DNA of 64,000 nt from an uncultured Acidimicrobiales bacterium (GCA_938021675.1 CALIFY010000041.1:8588-72587); one strand, 5' to 3'. Positions 1 to 25,250 are shown, numbered from the stretch's first letter. A program made the numbers and translations. The notes: a model not told the origin generated them from the sequence alone.

Positions 1-740
1 TCACGAAGAAACTCGACGGCAACCTTCGCTGCGTCAACCTTCGAGCCTGGAGCGTCGATCCACATGACCGGCACCTCAGTAACTTTTAGTTCGAACTTGG
101 CGGCTAGGTAGAGGATCTCGAGATCGAAAGAGAACTCGTCGATGAGCTGTCGGCGAAACAACAGGTGAGCGGCGTCGGAGGTAAACATCTTGAACCCGCA
201 CTGGGTGTCCGAAACCGACACCCGGAAGAGCCCACGGACGATGAGGCTGAGCCCAGCGCTGAATATCTTCCTGCTCAACGATTTGTTCGCTACTTCGGCC
301 CCGGCCGCAGCACGAGAGCCGACCACGACGTCGAATCCGCTCGCCAGCTCGTCGGCCAACGCTTCAAACTGCTCGATCGGCGTCGATTGATCGGCGTCGG
401 CGAACAAGATGATGTCGCCCTTGGCGGCCAGAACGGCCCGGCGCACCGCGCTTCCTTTTCCACCGTTTTTCTCGGCGATGAGGAGACGCAAATTCACAAG
501 CCCAAGGTCGTCGACGAGTTCAACCGTGGAGTCTGAACTGCCGTCGTCGGCGACGATGAGCTCCCACGGCTCACCGAGCGCGCTCATGTGGGTGGCGATA
601 GCACCAATGGTGGGAACGATCCGCCACTCTTCGTTGTAGGCAGGGATTACCACCGAGTAGCGAGGAGACCCGGTCAAAGGAGTGGCAGCCCACTCTCGGT
701 ATGAACTGAGCTTCGTGTCGTTCATCACCGCTTCTTCCAT
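1..740 (-). CDS. Family-2 (GT-A) glycosyltransferase, polyprenol-phosphate-sugar synthase-like; C-terminus cut by window edge
   Basis: Absent from the ORF track because there is no stop inside the window. My minus-strand translation (codons at 3n..3n+2) reads ...RYSVVIPAYNEEWRIVPTIGAIATHMSALGEPWELIVADDGSSDSTVE...IAEKNGGKGSAVRRAV...IDAPGSKVDAAKVAVEFLR, a classic GT2 N-terminal fold with an acidic DxD-type motif. In-frame ATGs lie at 740 and 725; the first is 13 nt after the flippase stop. Confidence 0.8.
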   Translation of the reverse strand, partial: MEEAVMNDTKLSSYREWAATPLTGSPRYSVVIPAYNEEWRIVPTIGAIATHMSALGEPWELIVADDGSSDSTVELVDDLGLVNLRLLIAEKNGGKGSAVRRAVLAAKGDIILFADADQSTPIEQFEALADELASGFDVVVGSRAAAGAEVANKSLSRKIFSAGLSLIVRGLFRVSVSDTQCGFKMFTSDAAHLLFRRQLIDEFSFDLEILYLAAKFELKVTEVPVMWIDAPGSKVDAAKVAVEFLR

Positions 741-753
741 GTGGCTGCTTCTC

Positions 754-2115
754 TCATGTAGTCGCCTTTTCTCTAACTGCCTCGTGGTTCTCGGCGTGTC
801 CGGCCGGTCCGGTACGACGGGCCCCGATGGCATGACTGACACCAACTGCCGCGAGGAGAATCGCCATCGCCCCCACCTGGGCCTCGATCAACGAGTCGAT
901 GTCGTCACGACCGAGAAAGAGCAATGTGGTTTGGATACCACTGCCGGCGAGGAGCACAAGCGCCTCACGGAGCCGTCCCATCGACAGATGGTGGGTGACG
1001 ATCAGGTTGGCCATGGCGAACAGAGATGTAGCGAACGCATACCGCGCCAACGGACCTGACACCTCAGCGTATTCCGGCCCAAAGACCCGGCCGAGTACGA
1101 TGCCGCCGAGCAGGGCGGCCCCGGCGACAAACCCGGCACCCATGAGCGCCACGATGCCGAGACCTCCGTAGAGCAGGCCATGAGAACTCTGCCCAAGCTC
1201 GTCCCGTCGTGCCGCGGCTGGAAAGAGGGTCGTGGCCACCGACCATGACAGAAAAAAGACGGCCCGGCCGACCAGCGCGATCGCCGCATAAACCCCCGCC
1301 GTATCGGGATCAAGAAATCGCTTTGCAATAAGTACGTCGCCGTTATTGATGACGATCTGGCCAAAGAGGAGCACGGCCACCGGACCGACGTAGCTGACGA
1401 GGACTGACACCGCTTGAGCGGTCATCGGTTCAGGTCGACGCCGCCCGATCAGAAGACGAACATGAATCCAAACGGCGAAGAACGACGCCGTAAGCCCGAC
1501 CGTCGCACCGCCGACCCCAAACCCTAAGGCGACAAGGCCGATTCCGGTGGCCACTCGAACCACCATCTCAACGATGAAGGTTGCGGCCAACGGCCGGAAG
1601 GTCAAATGGCCCTGGAGTACCCCGCGTCCAACCGCTTGGACCAGATAGAACGGCATGCCGATCCCGAGGATGACGAACGGCCAGGCCGACGCGGAGTTGA
1701 AGAACTCCCTCCAGAAAGACGCCCCACCGATCAACACGACCGCGACGATCGTGCCCGCCACCAGCGCTCGACGCTCAAGCCATCCGGCCAACGCATCGGT
1801 GGCGGCCCGGTCGGCGGCCACGGCGTTGATGCCGGCAAATCGGGCAGCGATCAGCTGCAGGCTGATCGCTATCGCCGTGACCAGCAGCATGATCGTGACC
1901 ATCAAGTTGGCATCGGCAAACTCTGCCGGGGTCAGCCATCGGCCAAGGAACACGTTGAGCAAGTAGTTGCCGGCATTGGCGATAATCATCGCCACGCCGA
2001 GGGCGGCGCCTCCCGCCATGAGCTTCTTTCCGTCGGTCGACGGCGTATCCGTCGCGACGGAGTCGTCGGCTACCACTTCATCCAAGTTGGCACCGGTACC
2101 CACGCTGCTCGACAC
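754..2115 (-). CDS. MOP-superfamily polysaccharide/oligosaccharide flippase (Wzx/MurJ-like polysaccharide biosynthesis protein)
   Basis: 453-aa ORF with about 12-14 hydrophobic helices (e.g. LMAGGAALGVAMIIANAGNYLLNVFLGRWL). It sits between two glycosyltransferase genes on the same strand. Confidence 0.7.
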   Translation of the reverse strand: MSSSVGTGANLDEVVADDSVATDTPSTDGKKLMAGGAALGVAMIIANAGNYLLNVFLGRWLTPAEFADANLMVTIMLLVTAIAISLQLIAARFAGINAVAADRAATDALAGWLERRALVAGTIVAVVLIGGASFWREFFNSASAWPFVILGIGMPFYLVQAVGRGVLQGHLTFRPLAATFIVEMVVRVATGIGLVALGFGVGGATVGLTASFFAVWIHVRLLIGRRRPEPMTAQAVSVLVSYVGPVAVLLFGQIVINNGDVLIAKRFLDPDTAGVYAAIALVGRAVFFLSWSVATTLFPAAARRDELGQSSHGLLYGGLGIVALMGAGFVAGAALLGGIVLGRVFGPEYAEVSGPLARYAFATSLFAMANLIVTHHLSMGRLREALVLLAGSGIQTTLLFLGRDDIDSLIEAQVGAMAILLAAVGVSHAIGARRTGPAGHAENHEAVREKATT

Positions 2116-2122
2116 TGCGGCC

Positions 2123-3352
2123 TCAACGCTTCTCGTTCAGCAGCGCGTCGAGATGTATGAGATGCCAGTCGATCACTTCCGCCATAGGGATCCCGGTGGC
2201 GGCCAGATAGTTCCGTGTTCCGTGTTCGGCGTTCAGGCTGGGATCGTCGAGCAGTTTGGCCAACGCGTCGGCAAGGCTCACCGGGTCGCCGGGCTGAAAG
2301 TACTGGCCGATGAACCCCTCTTCTTCTATGACTTCGACGAAATCACCGATTGCCGGAAGTACCGCGCTCCGCCCGTAGGACCCCGCCTGGTGAAGGACTC
2401 CTGAACTTCCCGTCGTAGAGGTATAGGGGAAGGCGGTGACAGCCGATCCAAGGAACAGGTCAGACACGTCTTCCTCTTCGACGTACCCGGTGAAAACGAC
2501 ATTGTCGAGGTCCGAACACTCCGCGGCGACCCTAGCCAAGTATCCGGCCGAGTTCGGGCTGTCGGTGCCGGCGATGACGAGTTCCAAGTCGTCGTACCCC
2601 CGATCGAGCAGGCGGCGGAATGCATCGACGAGCACATCGACGGTCTTGTATGTGCCCCACTTGCCGAACGCCAGGATTTTCCTTGGGCCGTCGGCTGGTG
2701 GACCGAATGCCGGCTCAGCGATTTCCTCGAAACTTCCGTGCGGTGCCAACAGCACGTTGTCGGCGCCGTAGGCGTCGCGCAAGAATTCGACGTAACGGGG
2801 AATGGTAAGAGCGACGTAATCGGTGGCGAGCACAGCTCGGGTGAGAAGCTTGCCGGCGTTGGTCATGACAAAGGCAGTGACCTTGGAGTCGGCAAAGCCT
2901 GCGTCTTGCATATCGACGTTGTCAGCCAAGTTGTGAAGGATGACCGCCGTTGGAATGCCCAACTTCTTCAACATCGCCGGGATCAGAAGGCCAAGGCCAC
3001 CGGGCACACGCCCATCGCCGAACGTCGCGAACTGAAGATTGATGAGCACGGCGTCGACCTTGGCCGCTCGAACCGCTCGAATGAGACGGAGAGGGTTGGT
3101 GACCGAGTTGAACTTCCACGACGCGATGGCCTCCACCTTGTGCTCGTTATTTTCGAGACGGAGGGGAGGCCCTGCATCGGTTTCATCGGCAAAAACCACC
3201 ACAGAGTCGACCCGTGGGTTTTCGGCCAAATGACTGACCAGATGGAAGCCAAACTCGTTGAGACTATTGCGACCGGGCGGGAACGCGGTAAGTACACCGA
3301 TACGTCGCACGGCCGGTGGGGTTGCGACAGCTCTCGAATCATTGGTCATCAC
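2123..3352 (-). CDS. GT-B fold glycosyltransferase, family 4/group 1
   Basis: 409 aa. N-terminus reads RIGVLTAFPPGRNSLNEFGF. C-terminal half reads FTGYVEEEDVSDLFLGSAVTAFPY...SSGVLHQAGSYGRSAVLP, typical of group-1 GTs. The start is GTG 3352 or ATG 3349; both overlap the stop (3349-3351) of the upstream kinase. Confidence 0.8.
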   Translation of the reverse strand: MMTNDSRAVATPPAVRRIGVLTAFPPGRNSLNEFGFHLVSHLAENPRVDSVVVFADETDAGPPLRLENNEHKVEAIASWKFNSVTNPLRLIRAVRAAKVDAVLINLQFATFGDGRVPGGLGLLIPAMLKKLGIPTAVILHNLADNVDMQDAGFADSKVTAFVMTNAGKLLTRAVLATDYVALTIPRYVEFLRDAYGADNVLLAPHGSFEEIAEPAFGPPADGPRKILAFGKWGTYKTVDVLVDAFRRLLDRGYDDLELVIAGTDSPNSAGYLARVAAECSDLDNVVFTGYVEEEDVSDLFLGSAVTAFPYTSTTGSSGVLHQAGSYGRSAVLPAIGDFVEVIEEEGFIGQYFQPGDPVSLADALAKLLDDPSLNAEHGTRNYLAATGIPMAEVIDWHLIHLDALLNEKR

Positions 3353-4320
3353 AAGGAGACCTCCTTCTCCGGAGGATCGAACGATGGGACTCCATGCTTG
3401 ACTAATTCCTCATCGGAAACTCGGGCCGCGACCCGCAACGTGGCGCAGGAGTACGTCTGCCCGTCGCTGCTCACCTCTAGCGTGCCACCAAGGGCGGTAG
3501 CGATGCGGCGGCACAATCCAAGACCCAGACCCAGTCCTCGGCTGGCCCTTGCGGTCGAGTCGTCGAGCATCGAAAAATCGGAAAACAACTCTTCGATTCG
3601 GGCCGGATCGATTCCGGGACCTGAATCTCGAACGGTCAATTCCAACAGATCATGATCGAGACGTATCTCGACCCGAACCGCCCCCGACGAAGCGTGAGCC
3701 AACGTGTTGTCGAGCAGCTCATCGACGATCTGCAACACTCGACCATCGTCGATTTCTATGAGGCGATCGTCGAGGAACGAGGTAACGGTCAGCAACTGCC
3801 CACCCCGCATGGCGGGACGCTGCCAACGATCGCGAATCGACTCGGCGAGGTCGGCGGCGGCCAGGATCCTCAGCTCTGGAACCAGGCGTCCGGTATCCAG
3901 GTCGACAAGGTCGAGCAATCGGGCGAGGAGCTGATGTAGTCGGTCTGCTGACTGGCGAGCCGTTTTCAGGTAGGTGTGGGGTTGCTCCCCGTCGACATAT
4001 GGTGCGAGTAGCTCAAGCATCCCGAGAATGCCGTTCAAGGGTGTTCGCATTTCGTGGCTCAACGTGGCGAGGAATCGCTCCCGTGACGTCGATGCGACCT
4101 TGAGCATGGCCAGTGTCTCTTCAAGGTCTGCGGTCCGTTCATCGACGCGAGCATCGAGACTCTGATTTATTAGCCAAAGCTCGCGCATACCCCGGTCGGC
4201 GATCTCTTCAGCCTGGCGACGGGCCCGCCGTTCCCTGGCCAAACGATGTTCAAGCCGAGCGATCCGCTGTTCTGGCTGCCGTGTACCGGCGGTTTCGGAG
4301 ACGCCCGGGGGTTTCGACAT
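3349..4320 (-). CDS. Soluble sensor histidine kinase without sensory domain (HnoK-like, H-NOX-associated)
   Basis: 323 aa with a coiled-coil N-terminus and H-box FLATLSHEMRTPLNGILG. ATPase boxes are LLDNTLAH, RDSGPGIDP and GLGLGLGL. No TM or ligand domain is visible. It starts 6 nt after the H-NOX stop. Confidence 0.85.
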   Translation of the reverse strand: MSKPPGVSETAGTRQPEQRIARLEHRLARERRARRQAEEIADRGMRELWLINQSLDARVDERTADLEETLAMLKVASTSRERFLATLSHEMRTPLNGILGMLELLAPYVDGEQPHTYLKTARQSADRLHQLLARLLDLVDLDTGRLVPELRILAAADLAESIRDRWQRPAMRGGQLLTVTSFLDDRLIEIDDGRVLQIVDELLDNTLAHASSGAVRVEIRLDHDLLELTVRDSGPGIDPARIEELFSDFSMLDDSTARASRGLGLGLGLCRRIATALGGTLEVSSDGQTYSCATLRVAARVSDEELVKHGVPSFDPPEKEVSL

Positions 4321-4326
4321 CGCCGA

Positions 4327-4878
4327 CTAGTTCGATTGGTCGGCCATCTTGACCGCTCGGACATCGAAGACGGTGACTTCCTCATCCAACCCGCTGATGA
4401 TCGTGACCTCTACGTGCTCCCCGAAGCGGTCACCGGCCCCCAGTATGAGGCCTTCGGCCAACACGCCAAGCTTGCGAGCCGATTTGTATGTGATCCGCAG
4501 GACATCGTCGGACAGGTCTTCGAATTCGAAGGAAGGCGGCTTGGCATCAGGATGAAGCTTCAGCACCTCGGGGTGAATGATGTCGTTGACACGACGGAGA
4601 AAGTCGTGGGTTCCAGTGGCCTCATCCACCAGCTCCGGGTATCGGTCGGCGAGATGAGGGAATGCATGCCGTCCCAGGACCCTGATCAGTTCGTGGGGCT
4701 CGTGACCGGTCATAGGACAGGCGGCACCCACGAGCGCGCCGAGGTCGGCGTCGTCGTAGCTCCCAAGCGCGGTGTAATGCCCATCGAGCTTCGCCGCGTC
4801 GAGAAGGTCATCCCAGGTGTCTTCGTCATAGAGGCGGACGACGGCTTCTTCGACCGCGTTGAAAATTACGCCCTTCAT
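4327..4878 (-). CDS. H-NOX (heme nitric oxide/oxygen-binding, HNOB) domain protein
   Basis: 183 aa. It starts MKGVIFNAVEEAVV, like characterised proteobacterial H-NOX (MKGIIFN...). Proximal-His context is VNDIIHPEV, and the heme-propionate motif Y-x-S-x-R is present as YKSAR. This is followed by LAEGLILGAGDRF, matching the AEGLLFGAAQHF region of Shewanella-type H-NOX. Confidence 0.85.
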   Translation of the reverse strand: MKGVIFNAVEEAVVRLYDEDTWDDLLDAAKLDGHYTALGSYDDADLGALVGAACPMTGHEPHELIRVLGRHAFPHLADRYPELVDEATGTHDFLRRVNDIIHPEVLKLHPDAKPPSFEFEDLSDDVLRITYKSARKLGVLAEGLILGAGDRFGEHVEVTIISGLDEEVTVFDVRAVKMADQSN

Positions 4879-6815
4879 GAGATCTCTCTTTTCTTGTCGA
4901 CGGTTCGCCGTTCGGTCAGTAACTCTGTACGCATTTCGTCGAGTTCGACCATGGCCCTATCGGCCTGTGCCAGGAGGGGTCCAAGCAGTTCGGATGATGT
5001 CTGGGCATCGCCGTCCGCGGCCTCGAAGTCGGCACACCGCGCCGACAACTCGGACGCGCCAAGCAAGGCGGCCGTCGACTTCAGCGTGTGAGCAGCTCGA
5101 CGTGCCGTGGCGAAATCGTGCGACGCTACCCCATCGGTCAGCTGCGATCGCCACGCCGGCAGCTCGTCAAGAAATGTCGAGATCACGGTGGCAACGACGT
5201 CGGGATCACCCAGTTCGGCGATGAGACGATCGACAACGGTCTGTTCCACCGCGGCCGGGGCTGCGATCGGATCCGGTGCGACGTCCGACCATCGGTCGAT
5301 CATTGTTTCCAACTCGGTAAGCGACACAGGCTTCGGGAGGTAGTCGTCCATTCCAGCATCGAGACACGTCTCTCGATCACCGGCCATGGCACTGGCTGTC
5401 GTGGCAATGATGGGAATCCGCTCTCCGGCCGACTCTTGCCCACGGATCCGACGGGTGGTGTCGAGCCCGTCCATATGGGGCATATGCCAGTCCATGAGGA
5501 TGATGTCAAAGCGTTCAACCGCAAGGATCTCCAACGCATCCGATCCGGAGCTCACCGTGGTTGGCATATGGCCGAGACGTTCGAGTTGGCTACTTGCCAG
5601 CATCAAATTCACTGCGCTGTCATCGACCACCAGCACGCTGAGGCCGCCCGAGTCACGACGCATCGGACGCTCGGTAACCACGGCACGATCGCTGGTTCGC
5701 TTGGCCTTCTCGAACGGAATGGTCGCCACAAATCTGGTTCCGTCCCGGCCGGTATCGAACGTCAGGCCGCCGTTCATGAGCTCGACCAAGCGTTTGGTTA
5801 TTACAAGCCCAAGTCCGGTGCCCTTCGTCGTGTCCTCAGGCCTGGCCTGTCGGTACGGTTCAAAGAGCGTGGGCCACGACGTCTCTGGAATCCCGGGACC
5901 CGTGTCGGCAACGGCAAACTCGGTTGAGAAGCCATCGATCTGCCGGACGCGAAGCTCGACCTTGCCTTCCTCGGTGTACTTGATGGCGTTTGATACCAGG
6001 TTCACCAAGATCTGACGGAGTCGGTGTTCATCGCCAAGAACGACCAACGGCACTGACGGGTCGATCGATACCGAGAAGCCGAGGCCTTTTTTTCTTGCGT
6101 CGGCGCCGTGGGATTCTGCTACCGCGTCGGCCACCGCACCCGGCGACAGGGGCTCGGACAGTAGCTCCAAACGATTGGCGCTGATCTTGGAGAAGTCCAG
6201 CAACTCGTCGAGCATGACCCGAAGCGCGTTCGACTCGCGGCCGATCAGTTGGAGATGTCGTTCGGTCGCAGAATCGATGAGCGGAGAGGCGAGCATCAGT
6301 TCTGCCACACCCATGATCGCATGCAACGGACTCCGCATCTCATGGCTCAGGCCGGCGATAAATAGCGCTCGTTCGGCCAGGGCCGCCTCAAGTTCGCTCC
6401 GACGTTCATCGCGTTCGATCCGGGCTCGGACTTCATCATCGATGGGCCGAGCCGTGATCACGATCCCGGCGATGTCCGGATCGTCGAGACGATTGACGGC
6501 CTGATAGCCGACATGTCCGTATGACCCGTCGGGGCGACGGAGCCGTGTTTCACCGCTCACAGATCGGAGCGGCTCGGCCAGCACGTCGACCAGGCCCGAT
6601 TCGATCGAGGGGCGGTCGTCGGGATGGACGAGAGCGAAGAGGTCGGCATCGTCCCAGAACGTCGAGTCGTAGCCGAGATCGCCTCGTGACCGGGCACTTG
6701 TCCAAATCGGCGCGCCTGCAGCATCGACGACGGTCACGGTGTCTTGGATGTTCTCGATGAGCTTCCGGTACCGGCGTTCATGTCCGGTGGAGGCTTCGTG
6801 GGCAGCTTCGACCAC
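4875..6815 (-). CDS. Hybrid sensor histidine kinase: PAS - HisKA - HATPase_c - REC - HPt
   Basis: 646 aa. PAS-like N-terminus (RYRKLIENIQDTVTVVD...). H-box GLSHEMRSPLHAIMG. G-boxes DTGPGIPE and GTGLGLVI. Receiver reads VLVVDDSAVNLML...IILMDWHMPHMDG...LPKP. C-terminal HPt reads AHTLKSTAALLG. Its stop overlaps the H-NOX ATG (ATGA at 4875-4878). Confidence 0.9.
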   Translation of the reverse strand: MVEAAHEASTGHERRYRKLIENIQDTVTVVDAAGAPIWTSARSRGDLGYDSTFWDDADLFALVHPDDRPSIESGLVDVLAEPLRSVSGETRLRRPDGSYGHVGYQAVNRLDDPDIAGIVITARPIDDEVRARIERDERRSELEAALAERALFIAGLSHEMRSPLHAIMGVAELMLASPLIDSATERHLQLIGRESNALRVMLDELLDFSKISANRLELLSEPLSPGAVADAVAESHGADARKKGLGFSVSIDPSVPLVVLGDEHRLRQILVNLVSNAIKYTEEGKVELRVRQIDGFSTEFAVADTGPGIPETSWPTLFEPYRQARPEDTTKGTGLGLVITKRLVELMNGGLTFDTGRDGTRFVATIPFEKAKRTSDRAVVTERPMRRDSGGLSVLVVDDSAVNLMLASSQLERLGHMPTTVSSGSDALEILAVERFDIILMDWHMPHMDGLDTTRRIRGQESAGERIPIIATTASAMAGDRETCLDAGMDDYLPKPVSLTELETMIDRWSDVAPDPIAAPAAVEQTVVDRLIAELGDPDVVATVISTFLDELPAWRSQLTDGVASHDFATARRAAHTLKSTAALLGASELSARCADFEAADGDAQTSSELLGPLLAQADRAMVELDEMRTELLTERRTVDKKREIS

Positions 6816-6933
6816 GGGTTCATCAGTCCTTATCTGGTCGATTGCCTCTCCTATCGACCAGGCACACTCGATCGTGAGCCGACCGGTGGTTCAATCGATC
6901 TACGTTCCGGCTCGATACTGCCGATTGAAAGCG

Positions 6934-9900
6934 GTGTCGACGCCTCCACCCGACGCAGCAGTCTCCGTCCCGCCGGCTGGTCTCCCCGTCGCCAGCCGGT
7001 CATCGGCCGCGCCAGCGGACGGGCCTATCGAGGCCGATCCAACGAAGACCGGGCGTATCCCGGTCCGGTTGTGGTGGGCGCTCGCCTTGGTCGTGTTGTT
7101 CCACGGCGGCCTGTTGCTGGCGGGAACTTTTCGGGGCACGTACGACGCCTACGTCCATATCTTCCTCGGCGACCATTACGCCCGAGGCTGGTTTTCGACT
7201 TGGGACCAGCGCTGGTACACCGGGTTCACGACCGTGTCGTACCCGCCCGGCACCCACATGTCGATCGCTGCACTTTCCGGAGTGACGGGAAGCCTCGAAA
7301 CCGCCTTCGTGATCGTGCAGTTGGCGTCGCTTCTACTCTTGACGGTTGGTGTCTACCGATTCAGTCGTCTCTGGGTCGACGATGACGTGGCGGCCAACGC
7401 CTCGTTGCTGTTGGTTGTGTCCTCCGCTATCGCCCAGACCGTTCACCTCTACGGCCAGTTACCCACCACGTTTGCCTTAGCGTTCTTGTTGAATGCGCTC
7501 CCCTCGATCCGCAAGTGGGTGTTCGAGGGCCGGTATGTCGATCTGTTCGTCGGCACGATCGTGTTGGCGGCCTGCACCGCCGGGCATCACGTCACCACCT
7601 TGTTTGGGTCCGTGTTCTTTCTCGGCCCGGTGCTCGTGGCGGGGTTGCTCTCCCAATCTCGGGTCGCCCGTGATGGCGAAATCGAAGCGTTCGACCCGGC
7701 CATCGAACGGCAAACCATCGGTCCTTTGGTGGCCCGTCGTCTCCGCAGGGTGTGGCCGGCCGTGATCCGAGGCGGAATCCTCGGGCCTTGCATCTTGGCC
7801 GCGCTCGTCGTCGTGGTGTTGCCGTACTGGATCTGGAGCGGGTCTGATCCGATCACCCAGATTCCCATTCCCCACGGGAGCCGAGCGAACTTTCTGGCCG
7901 ACCTCAATATCGGACTGATCTTCTTCTTCATCCCCTGGGGTTTGATGCTCCCCGTCTTGCCCTACGCCCTCATTCGTGCCGTCGTCGACCGAATGTGGCC
8001 ACTCGCAGCGTCAATCCTTCTCCTGTTCGTTCTCGGCAGTGGGGGCACGACACCGCTACCCAAGATTCTGCTAAGGGCAGCGTTTGACATTTTGACGCTG
8101 GACCGCTTCACGTTTTGGGCCACAATTCAGATCTTGCCGTTGGCCGGACTCTTCGTGAAGAGTCTCGAGGACGGATCAATCGCCGGTTGGTTCCGGCGGA
8201 CCGGCGGACCGGTGCTCCTCCGGACAGCCCAGGTTGGATTCATCGGGTCGATGCTCGCGCTCTGCCTCTTTTCGGCATCGTTGGCCCGATTCCGGCCCTT
8301 CCAACCAGACTCGATCGACCCCGACCCCATCGTTGCCTTCATGGAGAAAGATCAACACGAGCGATGGCGATTCCTTACCCTCGGGTTCGGGGATCAAATG
8401 GCTTGGCTGTCGGCGCAAACCACCGCTACCCAAGTCGATGGCAACTACCACTCCGTGCGTCGGCTACCGGAACTGACCTCTACGTCGGTCGAACGTCTCG
8501 AAGGGGCGAAGTACCGAGGGATTTCCGGCCTCGGTTCGCTCCAGCAATTCCTCGAAGTACCGGAGAAATATCACCTCAAGTACGTCTTTTCCAACGACGC
8601 GTTTTATGACCCATTGCTTCATTTCCTCGGTTGGCAAGAGCTCGGCCCCTTGGAGAACGGCATCGTCGTCTGGGAAAAGGGAGACATCGCTCCACTCCCG
8701 TCGGTGCTCCCCACCCGGGAAGTCCCCAGTTGGCAACGATTCATGTGGGGAACGGTTCCCCCGACCATGATCGTGTCGGCGTTGATTCTTCTCACATGGT
8801 CGGCGATCGGACGGCCCGGTCTCCGGACACCGGTCCGGCCTCCACACACCGCGATACTCATCGGGCCTGCGGCATGGATCGATCGGCGACTGCAACGTCG
8901 AGCGTCTCTCCTTTCCCCGGCTGGAGGGCGGCGTACAGCGTCGGCAGGTACCGAACGGTGGGGTGTCGTCGTCCTTGGTCGCGTTCGTCGCAGATTGCAT
9001 CGTCGCGTCGGGCCGCGGCGCCGATTGGGGCGAATGGTGGCATTGACGGCAGTTATCGGGCTGCTCCCGATCAGTGGCCTCGTCGGCGGGTCGACGTCGG
9101 CCGATCCGACCGATGTCGTCGAGTCTTACTACGACCACCTCGACTTCAGACGATGGGAGGCAGCGTATGACCTCCTCGATCCAATCACCCGACCGAACTA
9201 TGAACTTTGGCGACTACAAATCTCTGTCGAAGGAGGTCTCGTCGCCAGTTACGCAAAACTCGATTCTTTTACCGCCCGCCGCCTGAACGACGGCGCACCA
9301 CACAACGGCATACCCACCGACGCCGACGTAGACGACGTTGGGCGCAATCGCCAGGGTGACCGATCCACCGTCCGTGTCGATGTGCGGTACTTGACCGCGC
9401 TCGACTGGTACTCGGTGCAACGTGACCACGAGATCGTCGAGCGCGACGGATCGTGGTTTCTCGTGGCCGATGAGCCTGACCTCACAGTTCCCCCCGATCA
9501 GCTGGTCCGTAGACCCACCGTCGACTATCTGATCCAGGGTCGGCGACGCGTCACGTCGCTGACCAGTGAACTCACCGACATTCAAGACCGGCCCGAGCTG
9601 GCGATTGACGGTGCCAAGCTCGTCGAACGCCGTGGGCTGCCGGTGGTCGTCGGGGAGGTAGCAAACGTCGATGTCGATCCGGCCGATATCACGCTCACCG
9701 CGGTGCTGCGCAACGACGATGAGGAGGTCGTTGCCAGGTACAACGCAACCGACCACCTGATGAGAACACTCAACCCCGGGGAGTCATCGCCGTTTCGCAT
9801 CGAGTTCGAGGAGGTGGCAGCGGGGACGAACCTCGACTTCAACCCATTGGATTTCAGTCCGATCGAGCTCGACGACGAGATCGTATCGGTCGAGCTGTAT

Positions 9901-10329
9901 GCAAAGGCGGTGGTCACCCAGAAAGGTCTGTATCGGGGGGTGCAGTTGAACTCGCTGGACCTGATCGAACTCGATGACGGAAGCCACGTACTCCGCGGCG
10001 AGGTGCGAAACGATGGCGTTGTCGAGGCCGTGATCCCGATGGCCTTGATCAGCTTTCTCGATGAGTCCGGAGAGGTTGGATGGGTCGAGCGGGTATACCT
10101 CGATACGGCGATCCGGTCGCAACGGGCCAGCGACTTTCGCTACGAGTTACCTTCGCTCGATGACATCGATCCCGTCGACATAGACATCTCGGTCTTCGCC
10201 AACGGCAGTGATCGGCAGCGTGTCACCAGCGACCGCTCGACGGGCGATATCGCCGCCCCGACCGACTCGCCGTTCGCTTCGATCGGCATCGACCTCGTGA
10301 CGATGGTTCCGCCAGGAACACCGGGATGA
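6934..10329 (+). CDS. Very large polytopic membrane protein, GT-C-like/YfhO- or PTPS-related-like N-terminal half plus about 430-aa extracytoplasmic C-terminal domain
   Basis: The track ORF starts at 6739 but overlaps the divergent kinase gene. In-frame GTG 6934 (or TTG 6925) precedes the first helix (RLWWALALVVLFHGGLLLAG). The first-loop motif YDAYVHIFLGDHYARGWFSTWDQRWYTGF and more than 12 helices resemble GT-C type glycosyl/arabinosyl transferases. A further anchor (MVALTAVIGLLPISGLVGG) precedes a soluble domain. The functional call is tentative. Confidence 0.5.
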   Translation: MSTPPPDAAVSVPPAGLPVASRSSAAPADGPIEADPTKTGRIPVRLWWALALVVLFHGGLLLAGTFRGTYDAYVHIFLGDHYARGWFSTWDQRWYTGFTTVSYPPGTHMSIAALSGVTGSLETAFVIVQLASLLLLTVGVYRFSRLWVDDDVAANASLLLVVSSAIAQTVHLYGQLPTTFALAFLLNALPSIRKWVFEGRYVDLFVGTIVLAACTAGHHVTTLFGSVFFLGPVLVAGLLSQSRVARDGEIEAFDPAIERQTIGPLVARRLRRVWPAVIRGGILGPCILAALVVVVLPYWIWSGSDPITQIPIPHGSRANFLADLNIGLIFFFIPWGLMLPVLPYALIRAVVDRMWPLAASILLLFVLGSGGTTPLPKILLRAAFDILTLDRFTFWATIQILPLAGLFVKSLEDGSIAGWFRRTGGPVLLRTAQVGFIGSMLALCLFSASLARFRPFQPDSIDPDPIVAFMEKDQHERWRFLTLGFGDQMAWLSAQTTATQVDGNYHSVRRLPELTSTSVERLEGAKYRGISGLGSLQQFLEVPEKYHLKYVFSNDAFYDPLLHFLGWQELGPLENGIVVWEKGDIAPLPSVLPTREVPSWQRFMWGTVPPTMIVSALILLTWSAIGRPGLRTPVRPPHTAILIGPAAWIDRRLQRRASLLSPAGGRRTASAGTERWGVVVLGRVRRRLHRRVGPRRRLGRMVALTAVIGLLPISGLVGGSTSADPTDVVESYYDHLDFRRWEAAYDLLDPITRPNYELWRLQISVEGGLVASYAKLDSFTARRLNDGAPHNGIPTDADVDDVGRNRQGDRSTVRVDVRYLTALDWYSVQRDHEIVERDGSWFLVADEPDLTVPPDQLVRRPTVDYLIQGRRRVTSLTSELTDIQDRPELAIDGAKLVERRGLPVVVGEVANVDVDPADITLTAVLRNDDEEVVARYNATDHLMRTLNPGESSPFRIEFEEVAAGTNLDFNPLDFSPIELDDEIVSVELYAKAVVTQKGLYRGVQLNSLDLIELDDGSHVLRGEVRNDGVVEAVIPMALISFLDESGEVGWVERVYLDTAIRSQRASDFRYELPSLDDIDPVDIDISVFANGSDRQRVTSDRSTGDIAAPTDSPFASIGIDLVTMVPPGTPG

Positions 10330-11567
10330 CATCCCGCAACCGCATCAAACTGGGAAACGTTGCGGTCGCCGGATTGAGTCTGGCCACCCTCGTCGCCGTG
10401 GGGGTGTGGCTCGACAGGTCCGTTTACTCCGATGAGCCAGTCGCTCCTCCCGTCGTCATCGAGGGGACGCTCACGGTCGACGCCCCGAGCTCGGCGGTTG
10501 CGGGCGAACCCTTTCTGGTTTCCCTTTCCGGAGAGTACGAGGGCGAAATCGCTTCGCTGGTGATCGACGGAGGGTACGGGCAACGAAACCTCAGCGCGAT
10601 CATGACCGATGGCGTCGCCACCTTCGAGGTCCCGCCTTGGCCTCACCCCGAGTCTGGTTTGGTGCTTCTTGAGGCATCCGTTGGCCTGGCCCAAACCACC
10701 GCCACGATGGAGATCGCCCCCGGCCCGGCTACCGACCCGCTCGATATTTACCTGGGGCCTCGAACCGTCGTCGCCGATGCCAACGACTTCTCGATGGCGG
10801 TCGCTATTCCCAAGGATCGGTACGGAAATCCAGTATCGGAAGGAACGCCAGTCGATTTCTCGGTCAATCGGTCCTCGGGCACGTCGGCAACACAAGCGGC
10901 GCCAACCAGCGGTCTGCTGGCCTCGGTCGAGATCTGGTCACGGACCCGTGCGGGGCGAACTCGAGTCGGCGCCAGCGTTGGGGCCGCGAAGGGACCGGAA
11001 CGTTCCTTTCTCGAAGTCGCTGGGGTTCCCGTCGCCTTCGATCTGGGGTCGACCGATCCCGCCCCCACCGCCGACGGCTCTACGTTGTTTGAGGTATGGA
11101 CCGACGTCCTGCACGACGAGTTTGGCAATGTCGTTCCCGACGGCACGGTCGCCTACCTACGAGCGGCGGGGTCGACGAGCAATCGGCGGCTCCGGGGGAC
11201 TTCGATCGACGGCGTGGTGACCTTTGTCGTCGAAGCACCGGCCGAACCAGGTCCGGCGACGTTCGTTGCCAGCGCGAGCGGTGTGGCCAGTGAATCGTTG
11301 ACCATCGACTTCTCCGCCGCCGTCGCCCGGGCTCCGGTCACCGTCTCGGACCACGACGATGGCGTACACGTCGAAATCGGACGGGTCGTCGGCACAACCG
11401 GCAGCTACGTGCCGGACGGGACAGTCGCCTTGATCAACGTCGAAGACACGGTCTACTCGGTGGAGCTCGAACTCGGCCGAGGGTCGGTTGTCGTACCGCC
11501 GTTTGACGGAACCCCCTCGGTCTCTATTCTCGGTGTCGGTGCCACGTCGATCGAGGATGCCAGATGA
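10326..11567 (+). CDS. Membrane-anchored/secreted protein with repeated bacterial Ig-like (Big_1/invasin-like) domains
   Basis: 413 aa. N-terminal anchor is VAVAGLSLATLVAVGVWL. Recurrent motifs include KDRYGNPVSEGTPVDFSV, HDEFGNVVPDGTVAYL and GSYVPDGTVALINV. ATGA overlap with the upstream gene. Confidence 0.6.
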   Translation: MTSRNRIKLGNVAVAGLSLATLVAVGVWLDRSVYSDEPVAPPVVIEGTLTVDAPSSAVAGEPFLVSLSGEYEGEIASLVIDGGYGQRNLSAIMTDGVATFEVPPWPHPESGLVLLEASVGLAQTTATMEIAPGPATDPLDIYLGPRTVVADANDFSMAVAIPKDRYGNPVSEGTPVDFSVNRSSGTSATQAAPTSGLLASVEIWSRTRAGRTRVGASVGAAKGPERSFLEVAGVPVAFDLGSTDPAPTADGSTLFEVWTDVLHDEFGNVVPDGTVAYLRAAGSTSNRRLRGTSIDGVVTFVVEAPAEPGPATFVASASGVASESLTIDFSAAVARAPVTVSDHDDGVHVEIGRVVGTTGSYVPDGTVALINVEDTVYSVELELGRGSVVVPPFDGTPSVSILGVGATSIEDAR

Positions 11568-12319
11568 CACCCAACGGTCGGTCTCTGCTTCGTCGGCTGA
11601 GGCCCACTCCGTCGGGGCGTGCCGATTCCCGGGCGGCGAGATCCGACGAACCGATCCTCACCGCTATCGGCGGGCGGCAGCGAAAGAAGCTACTGGTCAG
11701 GCTCGGCCTTGCCGGGATCGTTGGGTCGGTTGCCTTGTTCGTTGTCGTCACGTCGGCGGGAATCATGGCTTCGATCACCCAAGCCGAGGAAACGTCGGAG
11801 ATCTTTACCGAAGCGGCTGAGCTGCCGCCCGATCTCATCGACGCCGTCACCTGGCACCCCGATGGTGAAGACCTCCCGAGAGAAATGGAGCCGCTAACCC
11901 GAGAAGCCGTCACCGCGGCCTGGCTTCGTGGCTGGGAACAGCTCCGTATCGTGGCAGAGACCGGTGATACCTCAGGGGTTGAGGTCAACTTCTCCAACTC
12001 GGCTCGACGTGGTGTCCTCGAACAGGCCGACAATTGGAACGGGAGATCCGTGCAACAACTTGGCCATGACCTGGCCCTCACCTTCTACTCCGAAGACGGC
12101 CAGGTCGTCGGGCTTCGGGCGGTCGAAAGTCGATTGAAGAGGACCAAGCATGTCGGCGAGGTCAAGCTTGGGCGGGAAACCGAAGAAAGATACGACGCTG
12201 TTCTCATTCTCGAAGATGGGAATTGGCGAATCCAGCATTGGGTCCGGCGCTCGTTCGCCGGCGAACCATGGGTGGTCGAAACGCTCGACCCCGGTCGGGT
12301 CGCCCCGGTCGACCACTAG
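11564..12319 (+). CDS. Membrane-anchored hypothetical protein (possible NTF2/SnoaL-like extracytoplasmic domain)
   Basis: 251 aa. Arg-rich N-terminus, one TM (LGLAGIVGSVALFVVVTSAGIMA), and a C-terminal region ...YDAVLILEDGNWRIQHWV. ATGA overlap with the upstream gene. Confidence 0.5.
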   Translation: MTPNGRSLLRRLRPTPSGRADSRAARSDEPILTAIGGRQRKKLLVRLGLAGIVGSVALFVVVTSAGIMASITQAEETSEIFTEAAELPPDLIDAVTWHPDGEDLPREMEPLTREAVTAAWLRGWEQLRIVAETGDTSGVEVNFSNSARRGVLEQADNWNGRSVQQLGHDLALTFYSEDGQVVGLRAVESRLKRTKHVGEVKLGRETEERYDAVLILEDGNWRIQHWVRRSFAGEPWVVETLDPGRVAPVDH

Positions 12320-12434
12320 CGACCGGGCCGTTGTCACTACCCTTCCCTGCTCGGCCTGCCCACTCGGCTCCTAACTCGACAAGAGTGGACGAAGCACGAC
12401 TCCAGTATCGAGCACGGACGCCGATATACCGCAG

Positions 12435-13811
12435 ATGAACACCGTCGCCGAACTTATTCCTGCCCATCGGTTTGGTTCGCTTCTGGCCGAGACGAGAACC
12501 AAAAACGGTCTCGATCTCGCCGACGTTGCGTCTCAGACCGACGGCCGGTTCAGCGTCGAACATCTGGCCGATCTTGAACGAGGCAACGACCTGCTATCGG
12601 AATCGGATGTCGCGTTGTTGGCGTCGTTCTACGGCCTCCGAACCGATCACGTGCTCCCTCAACGGGCGAAGCTATGTCTCGACCTCGACGCCCGGATCAT
12701 GCGGGTTGGAACCGAGATCGTCCAACTGGGCGAGACAGCCGAACACGACATCCTTCAGCGGTACTTGTCGATCGTCTACATGTTGCGCGGCATACAAGCC
12801 GGTGCTGAGGTACCGCTTCGGAACGATGATCTAGCAATTCTCAGCGCGTCGCTTCATGAGCGAATCGAGTTGATCGAGGAACAGCTGCTGGCCATGATGG
12901 TCGGCGGCGACCCTGCGCTCGTCGGTCTCGTCGAACGCCTCGGCGCCAAACTCTGGGTTCCCGGCGCAGGAATCTTGGTAGGGGCAGTGGGCCTTGGGGC
13001 CCTGGTGTTCGCCACCGGAGCTGAGGCCAAGGTCGCCGACAACACGAGTATCGACGCGGGTGTTACCGCACCAGCCACCGTGGTGGTGGAGATGCCCGGC
13101 CCCATACGGCTCGCCGACCCGGTAAGCGAACGGCTCAGCGGTGAGGTAGCAAGCCCCACACTCTTTGAGGTGCCGCCGGCGGAGGGCGCGCCGAGCCGGA
13201 CGACCGTGGCACCAACCCCCACCGGCGATTCCTCGACCCCTCCCGTCGCAACACCGTCAACCGACAACCCCATGTCAAGCGAAACGGTCACCGAGCCCCC
13301 ATCGCCGATCGGGGCCGAGCCCGCACCCCAGACACCCGAGCCGGCAGCGGCCGATGTCGTCTCGCTACACGACGCACTTCGGGAACCGACGATGGCTGCC
13401 CTTGGACTCGATGTCGAAAAAGTCTTGCCGGGTTGGACCGTTGAATTCCTACCGGAGCGTCCGGGATTTCGAGGGGTCACGTTTCGCAAGGAGCTTCGAA
13501 TCGAGATGTACGTTCAGGCCGGCGACTCGCCGGAACGTCTGGCTGGAATCCTGGCCCACGAAGTGGGACATGCAATCGACCTCACCTACCTCACGGAACA
13601 GGATCGCCATGCCTGGCTGGCGGCACGAGGCATTACCAATCCATGGTGGCCGGGAGACGCCGCTCCCGACTTCGCCACCGGCGCCGGAGACTTCGCCGAA
13701 GCGTTCGCCGAGCTGACGACCGGAGACCCGAGCGAGTCGGTCGCCGCAGGGGCGTTGACCGAATCACAGATCGAACTCTTGAATCGACTGGTTGGGCCCA
13801 TTATCGGATAA
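12435..13811 (+). CDS. Membrane-spanning protein: N-terminal XRE-type HTH, one TM, Pro/Thr-rich linker, C-terminal HExxH metallopeptidase-like domain
   Basis: 458 aa. HTH-like segment is LLAETRTKNGLDLADVASQTDGRFSVEHLADLERG. TM is LWVPGAGILVGAVGLGALVFA. Linker is TVAPTPTGDSSTPPVATPSTDNP..., and a zinc-binding-type motif reads LAGILAHEVGHAIDL. Confidence 0.6.
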   Translation: MNTVAELIPAHRFGSLLAETRTKNGLDLADVASQTDGRFSVEHLADLERGNDLLSESDVALLASFYGLRTDHVLPQRAKLCLDLDARIMRVGTEIVQLGETAEHDILQRYLSIVYMLRGIQAGAEVPLRNDDLAILSASLHERIELIEEQLLAMMVGGDPALVGLVERLGAKLWVPGAGILVGAVGLGALVFATGAEAKVADNTSIDAGVTAPATVVVEMPGPIRLADPVSERLSGEVASPTLFEVPPAEGAPSRTTVAPTPTGDSSTPPVATPSTDNPMSSETVTEPPSPIGAEPAPQTPEPAAADVVSLHDALREPTMAALGLDVEKVLPGWTVEFLPERPGFRGVTFRKELRIEMYVQAGDSPERLAGILAHEVGHAIDLTYLTEQDRHAWLAARGITNPWWPGDAAPDFATGAGDFAEAFAELTTGDPSESVAAGALTESQIELLNRLVGPIIG

Positions 13812-13892
13812 ACCTCGAAGGCCGAATACTTCTTTGAGCCGGCGGATTCCTCAGACAGAGAGATTCAAATCCCATGCGGGAAGCCCTGTTTG

Positions 13893-13978
13893 TGCCCGGG
13901 GCGGGATTTGAACCCGCACGAACCTTTCGGTCCCGAGGGGTTTAAGCCCTCTGCGTCTACCAGTTCCGCCACCCGGGC
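13893..13978 (-). tRNA. tRNA-Leu (anticodon UAA), class II with long variable arm
   Basis: I folded the cloverleaf by hand. Acceptor GCCCGGG/CCCGGGC. Anticodon stem GAGGG/CCCTC with loop CTTAAAC. Variable arm GGGACCGAAAGGTTC. T-arm GCGGG-TTCAAAT-CCCGC. Discriminator A. CCA is not encoded. Confidence 0.9.
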
Positions 13979-14040: not shown

Positions 14041-15447
14041 TCACAATCGGATCGATGGTGTCCGGTGATACTGGGCCGGTTCTACCCCGAGATGGGAGAG
14101 CACCGCTGGCGCAACATCAAGGGCGTTGATAGGGCCACCAGCGCCGGCATCGAACGTCGACGAATTCGTGACTCCCAGGACGCCTCGGGACACGTGACGG
14201 CCACTGGAATGATCCTCGACCGCCTGGATCTCGACCCCAACCGAGGTGGCCGTTTGAACCTCACCACCCAGCCGGACCGCATCATCTCCGACGACATCTA
14301 GATCGTAGGTCAGGGTGATGACGTCACCAGATCGATCGATGCTGGGTTTGGCCGCTCGGTTCACCCCCGCTCCAACCAAGATCCGGTCGGTCTCTTCGGC
14401 CTTGGACGCCGAGCCGCAGGCCAAAGTCAGTTGCGGGACCATAGCGCCACGAACCACGACAGAAGAATCGATTCCTAGCGCATCGACGAACCGTTGAGGG
14501 TCGACCACTACCGCCTCGTGGGAACGTCCGGCGTCGAGGGCCGGGCTCGGCCCCTGGCCCATCGATGATGCGACAACCAACGTGCGATCGTGTGCCGTGC
14601 ACCAGTCGTCGACCCGACGCAGGAACCGGTCGAGCGAGGCCAGCGCAGCCGGTATCTCCTGGCGATGCCGACGGACCCATCGGTCATCGTAGTGATCGTC
14701 TTCGAAGTCGTTCGGGTAGCGGGCATACCAGTAGCGGTGCATGCTGGCCGCCACATGGTTGGTAAAGAACACTGCAAGATCAGGAGCGTGCCGTTCGAGA
14801 AGATGAACGAACAGGTCACCGAGCAATAGGAACTGGGCCGATCGCAGCCGTTCCGTCGGAATGCGTCTGGACGCCACGCCGGCCACCATCGATGTGAGGT
14901 CGACCATCGTGCGGCCCCGAACCCCCAGTTGCGGCAGCAGCGGCACAAGTTTGGCAATCTGACGGGCCTCGGACCCCAACCGAGTACGTCGGGCGCTTGA
15001 CTTCGTCAACCGAAGGTTGAGCTGCTGAAAGTCGGAAAGCTCAGCTGGCACGGTGTCGGAGTCAGCGCTGAAACAGTCGGGAACTACGAACCGATATCGG
15101 TCCCCAACACACTGGGTTGCCAACGGAGACGAGTGCAACGTGTTGACAAGCCCGACAGTGAGACCAGCGGCCGCCGCTTGTTGCCAATAGAGCGGGAATT
15201 CCACCGGCTTAGGGTCTCCATACCAGTACACGCCATGTTTCTCGTACCCCACCCCGGTGTTCATCGAAGCCCATGACTGCGATGGGTACAACTCTCGGTC
15301 TAGATCGTCACCGACTTCAGTCTCGATCAGGCGACCGTTTGCTAAGAGACTGGCCAGGAATGGCGTCTCACCCGAAGGGGCATTGTCGGCGATAACCCGC
15401 AGCGGCACCTCATTCGCCTCGACCACGACCATCTTGTGACCATCCAT
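14041..15447 (-). CDS. Alkaline-phosphatase-superfamily-like protein (type I phosphodiesterase/nucleotide pyrophosphatase-like), tentative
   Basis: 468 aa. The N-terminal region VVVEANEVP...LYPSQSWASMNTGVGYEKHGV resembles the metal/nucleophile region of the Phosphodiest family, but with substitutions. No TM. Confidence 0.35.
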   Translation of the reverse strand: MDGHKMVVVEANEVPLRVIADNAPSGETPFLASLLANGRLIETEVGDDLDRELYPSQSWASMNTGVGYEKHGVYWYGDPKPVEFPLYWQQAAAAGLTVGLVNTLHSSPLATQCVGDRYRFVVPDCFSADSDTVPAELSDFQQLNLRLTKSSARRTRLGSEARQIAKLVPLLPQLGVRGRTMVDLTSMVAGVASRRIPTERLRSAQFLLLGDLFVHLLERHAPDLAVFFTNHVAASMHRYWYARYPNDFEDDHYDDRWVRRHRQEIPAALASLDRFLRRVDDWCTAHDRTLVVASSMGQGPSPALDAGRSHEAVVVDPQRFVDALGIDSSVVVRGAMVPQLTLACGSASKAEETDRILVGAGVNRAAKPSIDRSGDVITLTYDLDVVGDDAVRLGGEVQTATSVGVEIQAVEDHSSGRHVSRGVLGVTNSSTFDAGAGGPINALDVAPAVLSHLGVEPAQYHRTPSIRL

Positions 15448-24060: not shown

Positions 24061-24102
24061 GTATCAGCCACTGTCAGCATCCACCCTACGGCAGCCCGGC
24101 GC

Positions 24103-24939: not shown

Positions 24940-25250
24940 CAGTCGAGCGGTTCGAGGTAGAGATGGATCGTGCCGCCACAGGTCAACCCGACGGCAAAGG
25001 CTTCATCGTCGGAGTAGCCGAAGGTCACGATTCGACGCAACCCTTCGTCCAAACATTGAAGGGATTCGGCTACGACGGCCCCTTCCACGCAACCGCCGGA
25101 CACCGATCCCGCCACTTCGCCATCTTCGTTGACCGCCATCGCGGCACCGGGCAATCTCGGCCCCGAACCTTCGATGTCGACGACGCGGGCCAACGCGATG
25201 CGTTTGCCTTGGCGCCGCCACCTCGTGAGGTCGCCGAGTATCTCTTTCAT
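24936..25250 (-). CDS. XdhC/CoxI N-terminal-domain-only protein (104 aa)
   Basis: Only the last 104 codons of track ORF 24936..25688 look real: MKEILGDLTRWRRQGKRIALARVVDIEGSGPRLPGAAMAV...GSVSGGCVEGAV. ATG at 25250. ATGA-type overlap with the next gene. Confidence 0.65.
   Translation of the reverse strand: MKEILGDLTRWRRQGKRIALARVVDIEGSGPRLPGAAMAVNEDGEVAGSVSGGCVEGAVVAESLQCLDEGLRRIVTFGYSDDEAFAVGLTCGGTIHLYLEPLDW

Follow-up and report, generated by a model that had tools for sequence, protein, structure and literature searches.

Gene content of the H-NOX locus

We examined a 64,000-nucleotide (nt) stretch of DNA from an uncultured Acidimicrobiales bacterium (GCA_938021675.1, CALIFY010000041.1:8588-72587; hereafter the window), which opens with a cluster in which a stand-alone H-NOX haem sensor is placed between two histidine kinases and followed by glycan genes. 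Open reading frame (ORF) calling located six genes on the minus strand, occupying positions 1-6815, at the same coordinates as in a preliminary description made from the sequence. The first in gene order encodes a cytoplasmic hybrid histidine kinase (4875-6815) with Pfam PAS, HisKA, HATPase_c, Response_reg and Hpt domains. This is followed by the H-NOX (4327-4878; Pfam HNOB) and by a soluble histidine kinase (3349-4320) that has HisKA and HATPase_c domains only, with a coiled-coil N-terminus and without a sensor domain, receiver or membrane segment (hereafter the plain kinase). The remaining three genes encode a cytoplasmic glycosyltransferase (GT) of the GT4 type (2123-3352; Glycos_transf_1), a flippase of the MOP/Wzx type with at least nine hydrophobic segments (754-2115; Polysacc_synt_3) and a GT2 glycosyltransferase (3-740; Glycos_transf_2, 5.6e-26), which is truncated by the window edge and has a full length of 283 amino acids (aa). 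As no transmembrane segments were found in the H-NOX or in either kinase, sensing is cytoplasmic.

The junctions between these genes are short: −4, +6, −4, +7 and +13 nt from the hybrid kinase to the GT2 gene. Read directly from the sequence, the hybrid kinase and H-NOX genes share an ATGA overlap (4878-4875), and the H-NOX stop codon TAG is separated by 6 nt from the ATG of the plain kinase. The plain kinase and GT4 genes overlap by GTGATG (3352-3347), with a GGAGG ribosome-binding site preceding the GT4 start. The TGA of GT4 lies 7 nt before the GTG of the flippase gene, and the TGA of the flippase gene 13 nt before the ATG of GT2. The ORFs, Pfam domains and junctions thus agree with the six tightly packed genes of the preliminary description. 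We also considered whether an internal promoter or terminator could divide the kinase genes from the GT genes. Using a scan limited to sigma-70-type promoter and intrinsic-terminator patterns over positions 1-12600, terminator-like sites were not enriched (12 observed versus 9.1 +/- 3.3 expected) and promoter-like sites were at chance level. With nothing above chance and neither kind of site at a junction, we rejected such a split.

On the opposite strand, and separated from the hybrid kinase gene by a divergent control region of ∼118 nt (6816-6933), lies a second set of three genes. The first encodes a membrane protein of ∼1,100-1,130 aa with a predicted GT-C fold and a C-terminal beta-sandwich ectodomain (6934-10329), for which no Pfam or NCBIfam family passes; its start codon was chosen by its spacing from a conserved 12-nt motif described below. 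The second encodes a single-pass membrane protein with extracytoplasmic Ig-like domains (Big_1/Invasin_D3; 10326-11567) and always follows the GT-C gene, and the third a conserved single-pass membrane protein whose fold has no assignment (11564-12319). A tRNA-Leu(TAA) gene (13892-13978, minus strand; Rfam) is found ∼1.6 kb beyond the right end of the conserved cluster.

NCBIfam contained no family for the H-NOX, the flippase, the GT-C protein or the two partner proteins of the GT-C unit, and both kinases gave only generic matches, far below cut-off. A phmmer search of the 64 kb with the receiver (REC) domain of the hybrid kinase matched only that domain itself, a six-frame motif scan found no GGDEF motif in the window, and no GGDEF, EAL, HD-GYP or DNA-binding response regulator was detected by Pfam in 30 further ORFs; for ORFs beyond these 30 and the cluster genes, coverage was limited to the six-frame scan for REC and the motifs. 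On this point, too, our searches bear out the preliminary description, which had noted the lack of cyclic di-GMP enzymes and of DNA-binding regulators in the window.

The H-NOX protein has the residues of a haem-binding, NO-type sensor

With Pfam HNOB (PF07700), the H-NOX protein scored 126.1 bits (cut-off 25.5) over positions 1-162 of 163. Five residues, His102, Pro115, Tyr131, Ser133 and Arg135, were invariant across 34 aligned homologues (47-86% identity). Tyr131-x-Ser133-x-Arg135 constitutes the propionate-binding motif and, with the proximal ligand His102 and with Pro115, gives the full set of haem-binding residues. The distal pocket is different from that of the O2-binding subclass. In that subclass, a hydrogen-bond donor at Tyr140 is what permits stable O2 binding. 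Position 140 is instead leucine in at least 90% of the homologues, and across the alignment we found neither a tyrosine in the distal pocket nor a conserved cysteine cluster. The protein therefore looks functional, and its residues point to the type that is selective for nitric oxide (NO).

By sequence profile, the nearest structures in the PDB are those of stand-alone bacterial H-NOX proteins (6ocv, 4u9b and 2kii), a group deposited as Heme NO binding domain protein or NO-binding heme-dependent sensor protein. The named homologues derive from metagenome-assembled genomes (MAGs) of Acidimicrobiales or Acidimicrobiia. The position of the gene, overlapping that of one same-strand cytoplasmic histidine kinase by 4 nt and 6 nt from that of another, is an arrangement of the HnoK/HahK/HqsK type.

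Linkage of the H-NOX trio to glycan genes is conserved

To examine the linkage in other genomes, one genome per species (GTDB) was scanned with the H-NOX alignment; 80 loci were kept and then searched with profiles of 14 cluster components (loci and contigs from all our comparisons are numbered with the prefix L). At 29 of the 80 loci, all from Acidimicrobiales-type MAGs, genes for a hybrid kinase, an H-NOX and a plain kinase occurred together as a trio. A GT4 or GT-C gene was nearby at every one of these 29 loci but at none of the 50 complete H-NOX loci that lack the trio. The latter include Solirubrobacterales, Massilia, Sphingomonas and Acidobacteria, and the H-NOX gene there is found beside a single kinase-like gene. 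In the trio loci, the plain kinase gene is always directly downstream of H-NOX, so that the arrangement of one H-NOX between a hybrid and a plain kinase, to which the preliminary description had drawn attention, is conserved in 29 species.

The linkage is also maintained where the genes have been rearranged. At L026 and L027, the three normally divergent genes are turned to be co-directional. At L035, L053, L058 and L065, the order is GT-C, Ig-like protein, third protein, GT4, flippase and then the trio; at L074, the glycan and switch genes (see below) come first and the trio after; and the linkage survives rearrangement at L078, from a MAG of the genus Ilumatobacter, as well. The persistence of the grouping despite these changes of order provides good evidence that H-NOX and the glycan genes are functionally linked. 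We rejected chance packing into one operon, since the linkage persists through four different gene orders. The connection of signalling to glycan genes that had been proposed for the window is therefore a conserved one. The extent of the unit had been underestimated, as it also takes in the divergent GT-C gene with its two partners.

In relatives, the operon continues into a partner switch and a receiver

In the relatives, the operon continues on the same strand past GT2. The full order is hybrid kinase, H-NOX, plain kinase, GT4, flippase, GT2, STAS, PP2C, RsbW-like, STAS and receiver. This continuation was seen at L001, L003, L005, L007 and L008, whose H-NOX proteins have 83%, 78%, 65%, 86% and 58% identity, respectively, to that of the window; domains were assigned by Pfam on L007, the nearest relative. 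The products include a SpoIIE-type PP2C phosphatase of ∼408 aa, an RsbW-like kinase of the HATPase_c_2 family of ∼138 aa and a single-domain Response_reg protein of ∼130 aa. The window is collinear with L007 from the divergent genes to base 1, which falls ∼110 nt before the end of GT2. This collinearity argues strongly that, in our organism also, the six genes open an operon of ∼11 genes running beyond base 1.

Thus, the missing output reflects where the window ends, inside GT2, and is not a property of the locus. The claim in the preliminary description that the system has no canonical output did not hold. It had also been said that a regulator of the HnoB or HnoD type immediately beyond the left edge would overturn the proposal; the relatives lead us to expect a regulator at that place, though of neither the HnoB nor the HnoD type.

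The downstream proteins look competent as a partner switch. In the relatives, the phosphorylatable serine (DS[T/A]) is conserved in each of the two STAS proteins, the RsbW-like protein keeps the N and G boxes, and the stand-alone receiver keeps the acidic pocket, the phospho-acceptor aspartate, the threonine and the lysine. A full set of the RsbV/RsbW/RsbU type (STAS with serine, HATPase_c_2 kinase and PP2C) is therefore encoded together, in the relatives only. PP2C and the terminal receiver were present at 18 of the 24 trio loci whose downstream sequence was long enough to judge. At each of the 18 loci with the partner-switch block, a competent stand-alone receiver is encoded, which in the canonical gene order lies at the operon end. 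At two loci (L017 15116-16888 and L026 15176-16849), PP2C and the RsbW-like kinase form one fused ORF, which supports joint action of the two proteins.

The locus accordingly consists of three functional blocks: a cytoplasmic input of H-NOX and kinases, a glycan block and, in the relatives, a partner switch with a receiver.

As a separate observation, the fused PP2C-kinase ORFs recall the multi-domain regulators SypE and HsbR.

A predicted GT-C glycosyltransferase and the glycan route

More than 2,500 proteins are homologous to the GT-C protein, with 45-80% identity, and a few of these have PMT_2 or PTPS_related matches. By sequence it could not be placed: a profile search against PDB sequences returned only noise, and Pfam only a sub-threshold PTPS_related match. 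We therefore used an AlphaFold model built with 34 homologues (pLDDT 78.6, pTM 0.74). Foldseek gave a probability of 1.00 for AglB, STT3, PglB, AftA, ArnT, DPY19 and AftD, and of 0.96 for EmbA/B. The target-normalised TM-scores were 0.32-0.49 for the best matches and 0.22-0.25 for AftD and EmbA/B. The best PDB matches are all GT-C enzymes, with AglB, STT3 and PglB being oligosaccharyltransferases, and the C-terminal third of the model consists of beta-sandwich domains. On the basis of this model, the gene at 6934-10329 is predicted to encode a GT-C glycosyltransferase. From its fold and the adjacent GT2 and flippase genes, the enzyme would take sugar from a polyprenyl-phosphate-linked donor and attach it to an acceptor on the extracytoplasmic side. 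The Ig-like protein encoded at 10326-11567 is a candidate acceptor or accessory protein.

The best NCBIfam matches of the GT2 orthologue were PgfS, ArnC, AglJ, a dolichyl-phosphate hexose transferase and PpgS, all polyprenyl-phosphate sugar synthases, and close GT2 homologues are named dolichyl-phosphate beta-glucosyltransferase in public sources. Extracytoplasmic glycosylation is known to follow a three-part scheme of a GT-A lipid-sugar synthase, a flippase and a GT-C enzyme (PMC13390465). By analogy, GT2, flippase and GT-C would represent this scheme, with GT4 as an addition. As in the CsbB/GtcA/YfhO and ArnC/ArnT systems, a GT2, a flippase and a GT-C-fold transferase are encoded together. 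In contrast to these, the flippase here is of the MOP/Wzx type rather than the GtrA type. The GT-C protein also differs from those of the three-component systems in its size of ∼1,100 aa, its large beta-sandwich ectodomain and its lack of a curated family, and the extra GT4 suggests an oligosaccharide over a single sugar.

Outside the Acidimicrobiales, the GT-C unit is accompanied by other carbohydrate genes. A GH5 glycoside hydrolase is found with it in Chloroflexi (L092 14550-16292), and a polysaccharide pyruvyl transferase in Subtercola and Nakamurella (L093 1-1029 and L094 17843-19078). These neighbours hint that the product is a polysaccharide. ORFs homologous to that at 11564-12319 are longer in other phyla, and the Chloroflexi gene at this position has the GH5 domain.

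A conserved inverted motif in the divergent control region

The control region at 6816-6933 contains an inverted pair of the conserved 12-nt motif GCCGAT[T/A]GGAAC. The plus-strand copy (6920-6931) stops 2 nt short of the GT-C start codon; the minus-strand copy, at 6845-6859, is degenerate. The motif recurs in the relatives, for example at L012 7957/8003, L033 8377/8414 and L025 8402. In several of these, the GT-C-side copy likewise ends 2 nt before the start codon, with the kinase-side copy 4-70 nt before its gene. The 8-mer CAATCGGC was present in 13 of 15 intergenic regions of relatives that otherwise could not be aligned. The motif may serve as an operator, as a promoter element or as a signal for translation. 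For the control region, we also considered a riboswitch or another RNA of known family and rejected this, the only Rfam matches in the window being two tRNAs.

Comparison with known H-NOX and partner-switch systems

The closest analogue that we found is the HnoX/HahK-SypF-SypE/SypA-Syp pathway of Vibrio fischeri, which the locus appears to match in both logic and domain inventory. In V. fischeri, NO and HnoX act through HahK, SypF (Hpt) and SypE/SypA on the Syp polysaccharide, with H-NOX inhibiting HahK and SypA acting on a non-sigma target; Syp control lies below transcription (PMC12369376). The common elements are an H-NOX beside a kinase, the Hpt domain of a hybrid kinase, a receiver, a PP2C/RsbW-type switch acting on STAS, and a polysaccharide made with GT4 and GT2 enzymes and a Wzx-type flippase. 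All the syp-type domain types are present across the window and the continuation in the relatives, a match of architecture and not of orthology. The wiring from NO sensing to polysaccharide had been described in the preliminary description as new. The coupling itself is conserved, but its novelty was overstated, since the V. fischeri pathway has the same logic.

There are nevertheless clear differences. All the parts are in one cluster here, while hnoX-hahK is unlinked to syp in V. fischeri. SypE is one polypeptide that combines PP2C, RsbW and REC domains; here the three domains are separate proteins, except that PP2C is fused to the kinase in the two relatives. The H-NOX-adjacent plain kinase lacks the receiver that HahK has. 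Two STAS proteins, a GT-C step and a Gram-positive-type actinobacterial host further distinguish our system. No SypG-like sigma-54 activator domain was found at any locus whose genes were annotated.

Like the HnoK networks of Shewanella and Vibrio and the HqsK-LuxU system of V. harveyi, the locus has a stand-alone H-NOX in an operon with a cytoplasmic kinase and more than one kinase that would feed a single relay. Neither the window nor the 10-kb flanks of the annotated relatives contained a cyclic di-GMP enzyme, an HnoB/C/D-type regulator, an EAL/HD-GYP response regulator or a LuxU/LuxO-type relay. Response regulators with a DNA-binding output were likewise absent from the relatives that have the partner switch, the OmpR-type regulator of L009 (see below) belonging to a different variant of the locus. 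The locus is therefore not a member of the HnoB/HnoC/HnoD cyclic di-GMP network, and the output differs from that of both the HnoB/C/D and HqsK-LuxU systems, being a partner switch and a glycan pathway.

Further parallels exist among partner switches that do not involve H-NOX. In the HptB-HsbR-HsbA and SiaABCD systems of Pseudomonas aeruginosa, an Hpt passes phosphate to a receiver, which controls a PP2C phosphatase and an RsbW-like kinase working on a STAS protein; the target is not a sigma factor, and the output is of the biofilm type. HptB-HsbR-HsbA is thus a second architectural parallel, with the difference that the parts united in the single HsbR polypeptide (REC-PP2C-kinase) are encoded separately here. 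Neither a diguanylate cyclase nor a FlgM-type target is encoded nearby. The only NCBIfam match of the PP2C protein was SiaA, at 29 bits and far below cut-off. In Anabaena, a PP2C/STAS switch (HenR/All4160) acts directly on a glycosyltransferase (PMC13555669). Our locus resembles this system in combining a PP2C and STAS phospho-switch with a polysaccharide glycosyltransferase; the STAS domain is fused to the glycosyltransferase in Anabaena, whereas the STAS proteins here are free-standing.

Three points are new: the occurrence in Actinomycetota of an H-NOX system whose target can be identified, the co-location of sensor and effector in one cluster, and a widespread, uncharacterised actinobacterial cluster that combines a GT-C, a partner switch and a phosphorelay and in which the sensor seems exchangeable. 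H-NOX signalling has been worked out almost wholly in Proteobacteria, with none characterised in this phylum. With the sensor, kinases, Hpt, receiver, switch and presumed target side by side, a whole path can be proposed from one locus.

A proposed pathway and its alternatives

We consider it probable that a phosphorelay/partner-switch operon under the control of H-NOX and two kinases regulates a surface-glycosylation machine. H-NOX inhibits HnoK and HqsK, and here NO binding to H-NOX would alter, and most likely inhibit, the autophosphorylation of one or both adjacent kinases. Phosphoryl groups would pass from the kinase histidine to the REC aspartate of the hybrid kinase, then to the Hpt histidine and on to the terminal stand-alone receiver. 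The phosphorylation state of this receiver would set the balance of PP2C against the RsbW-like kinase on the conserved serine of STAS, and unphosphorylated STAS would turn the glycan machinery on or off, probably after transcription. The lipid-linked sugar route of GT2/GT4, flippase and GT-C, glycosylating a surface acceptor, would in this way track the NO signal.

Several observations weigh against this pathway. For this genome, the genes after base 1 are assigned by collinearity with the relatives, and haem and NO binding, the kinase partner of H-NOX, the sign of the regulation and the route of phosphotransfer are all putative. No binding partner of STAS was identifiable from the sequence, and the matches of GT2 to named polyprenyl-phosphate transferases all fall under the curated cut-offs. 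In some relatives, the plain kinase and GT4 genes are separated by gaps of 48-141 nt, which leave room for internal promoters. Moreover, 6 of the 24 evaluable trio loci lack the partner switch, so the output is not uniform across the family. At five of these six, a convergent gene with a REC-like match follows the plain kinase gene; the equivalent gene of L009 (JGI contig, 8157-12170) encodes an OmpR-type regulator (REC and Trans_reg_C, Pfam).

The most serious alternative concerns the target of the switch. STAS, the RsbW-like kinase and PP2C have the canonical RsbV/RsbW/RsbU architecture, and in a classical switch the RsbW-like kinase would be the anti-sigma factor of an unlinked sigma factor, with NO setting transcription of the cluster and possibly of a wider regulon. 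The control-region motif contains GGAAC, which resembles the −35 element of extracytoplasmic function (ECF) sigma factors, and L008 has an ECF sigma gene ∼2.5 kb downstream. At the other annotated loci, though, we found no conserved sigma gene within the cluster or beside it (within 10 kb), for which reason we favour a non-sigma target for STAS. The motif copy 2 nt from the GT-C start codon is in the wrong place to be a −35 element for that gene, and partner switches with non-sigma targets are established (SypA and All4160). We regard sigma factor control as unlikely, if still the best of the competing explanations.

The nature of the signal is less in doubt. Some bacterial H-NOX proteins bind O2, a review devotes a section to alternative sensing mechanisms for H-NOX (PMC8738867), and the hosts are marine and probably aerobic, with no obvious source of NO. 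The same architecture could in principle detect O2, haem redox state or oxidants. This is distinctly improbable given the nearly universal Leu140, the absence of a distal tyrosine and of a cysteine cluster in the alignment, and the NO-binding sensors that are the nearest structures. Finally, the absence of any receiver-output protein from the 64-kb window had suggested that the H-NOX and its two kinases might act directly on the glycosyltransferases by a new route that needs no receiver output. We give this very little credence: every switch-bearing relative has a competent receiver, and the window is collinear with these relatives up to its end within GT2. We also know of no role for an Hpt domain besides passing phosphate to a receiver.

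The locus could help to show what free-standing STAS proteins such as SypA bind where there is no sigma factor.

Switch-less variants, which lack PP2C, the RsbW-like kinase and the terminal receiver, were noted at L009, L035, L046, L053, L058, L065 and L078. Several of these loci still have GT4, flippase and GT-C genes upstream.

Related clusters without H-NOX in other actinobacteria

To determine whether the cluster occurs without the sensor, we compared contigs with GT-C or GT2 homologues from the cultured actinobacteria Microbacterium aquimaris, Actinoplanes sp. NBRC 101535, Subtercola sp. PAMC28395 and Nakamurella flava. GT4, flippase, GT2, STAS, PP2C, the second STAS and the stand-alone receiver are in the same order in all four. 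The profile scores in Microbacterium and Actinoplanes were ∼620 bits for GT4, ∼415 for GT2, 260-280 for PP2C and ∼1,190 for GT-C. A membrane protein of ∼1,100 aa is encoded in each cluster; in Microbacterium and Actinoplanes it is a GT-C homologue, and in Subtercola and Nakamurella it was called by size and position only. The four clusters have a hybrid kinase with Hpt, or a REC-Hpt protein. A separate RsbW-like kinase gene is found only in Actinoplanes and Subtercola, and no H-NOX gene is present in any of the four clusters.

The H-NOX thus looks like an Acidimicrobiales-specific cytoplasmic input added to an older, widespread actinobacterial cluster. We found no description of an actinobacterial GT-C/partner-switch/phosphorelay cluster in the searchable literature; the published paper on Actinoplanes exopolysaccharide concerns other clusters. 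More tentatively, and with somewhat less than even expectation, we suggest an undescribed actinobacterial module in which a phosphorelay and a STAS/PP2C/RsbW switch would gate GT-C surface glycosylation post-translationally, under an interchangeable sensor (H-NOX in Acidimicrobiales and GAF in Actinoplanes). If this were true, NO would be a direct cue for cell-surface remodelling in marine Acidimicrobiales, and H-NOX would have its first assigned function in a Gram-positive-type phylum. The H-NOX-less clusters of the cultured Microbacterium, Subtercola, Nakamurella and Actinoplanes offer a route to genetics.

In Actinoplanes (L091 16514-20356), a gene for a stand-alone GAF protein of 174 aa comes after those for the hybrid kinase and a plain kinase. 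The position of this GAF gene beside the kinases suggests that small cytoplasmic sensor proteins are swapped there. We do not claim the 306-aa Actinoplanes kinase as an orthologue of the plain kinase of the window, as it scores better against the hybrid-kinase profile.

Other features of the window

Elsewhere in the window, Pfam gave no match at E <= 0.001 for the ORFs of 468-593 aa at 14041-15447 (minus strand), 45646-47427 (minus strand) and 48233-49780 (plus strand). A minus-strand group of genes at 22709-27115 encodes CoxG, a MobA-like nucleotidyltransferase, XdhC and the FAD-binding subunit of a molybdenum hydroxylase; among the ORFs scanned, none was recognised as the large catalytic subunit. 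On the plus strand, a gene for a 651-aa protein with an extremely proline-rich C-terminal half and no family match (31090-33045) is directly followed by one for a Ser/Thr protein kinase with one membrane segment (33159-35132). Also on the plus strand, 42131-45604 encodes a predicted surface protein of 1,157 aa with three SdrD_B-like repeats, SpaA/prealbumin-like folds, a Pro/Thr-rich stalk and a C-terminal hydrophobic anchor. The second of the two tRNA genes, tRNA-Gln(TTG), is at 63330-63403 on the minus strand (Rfam).

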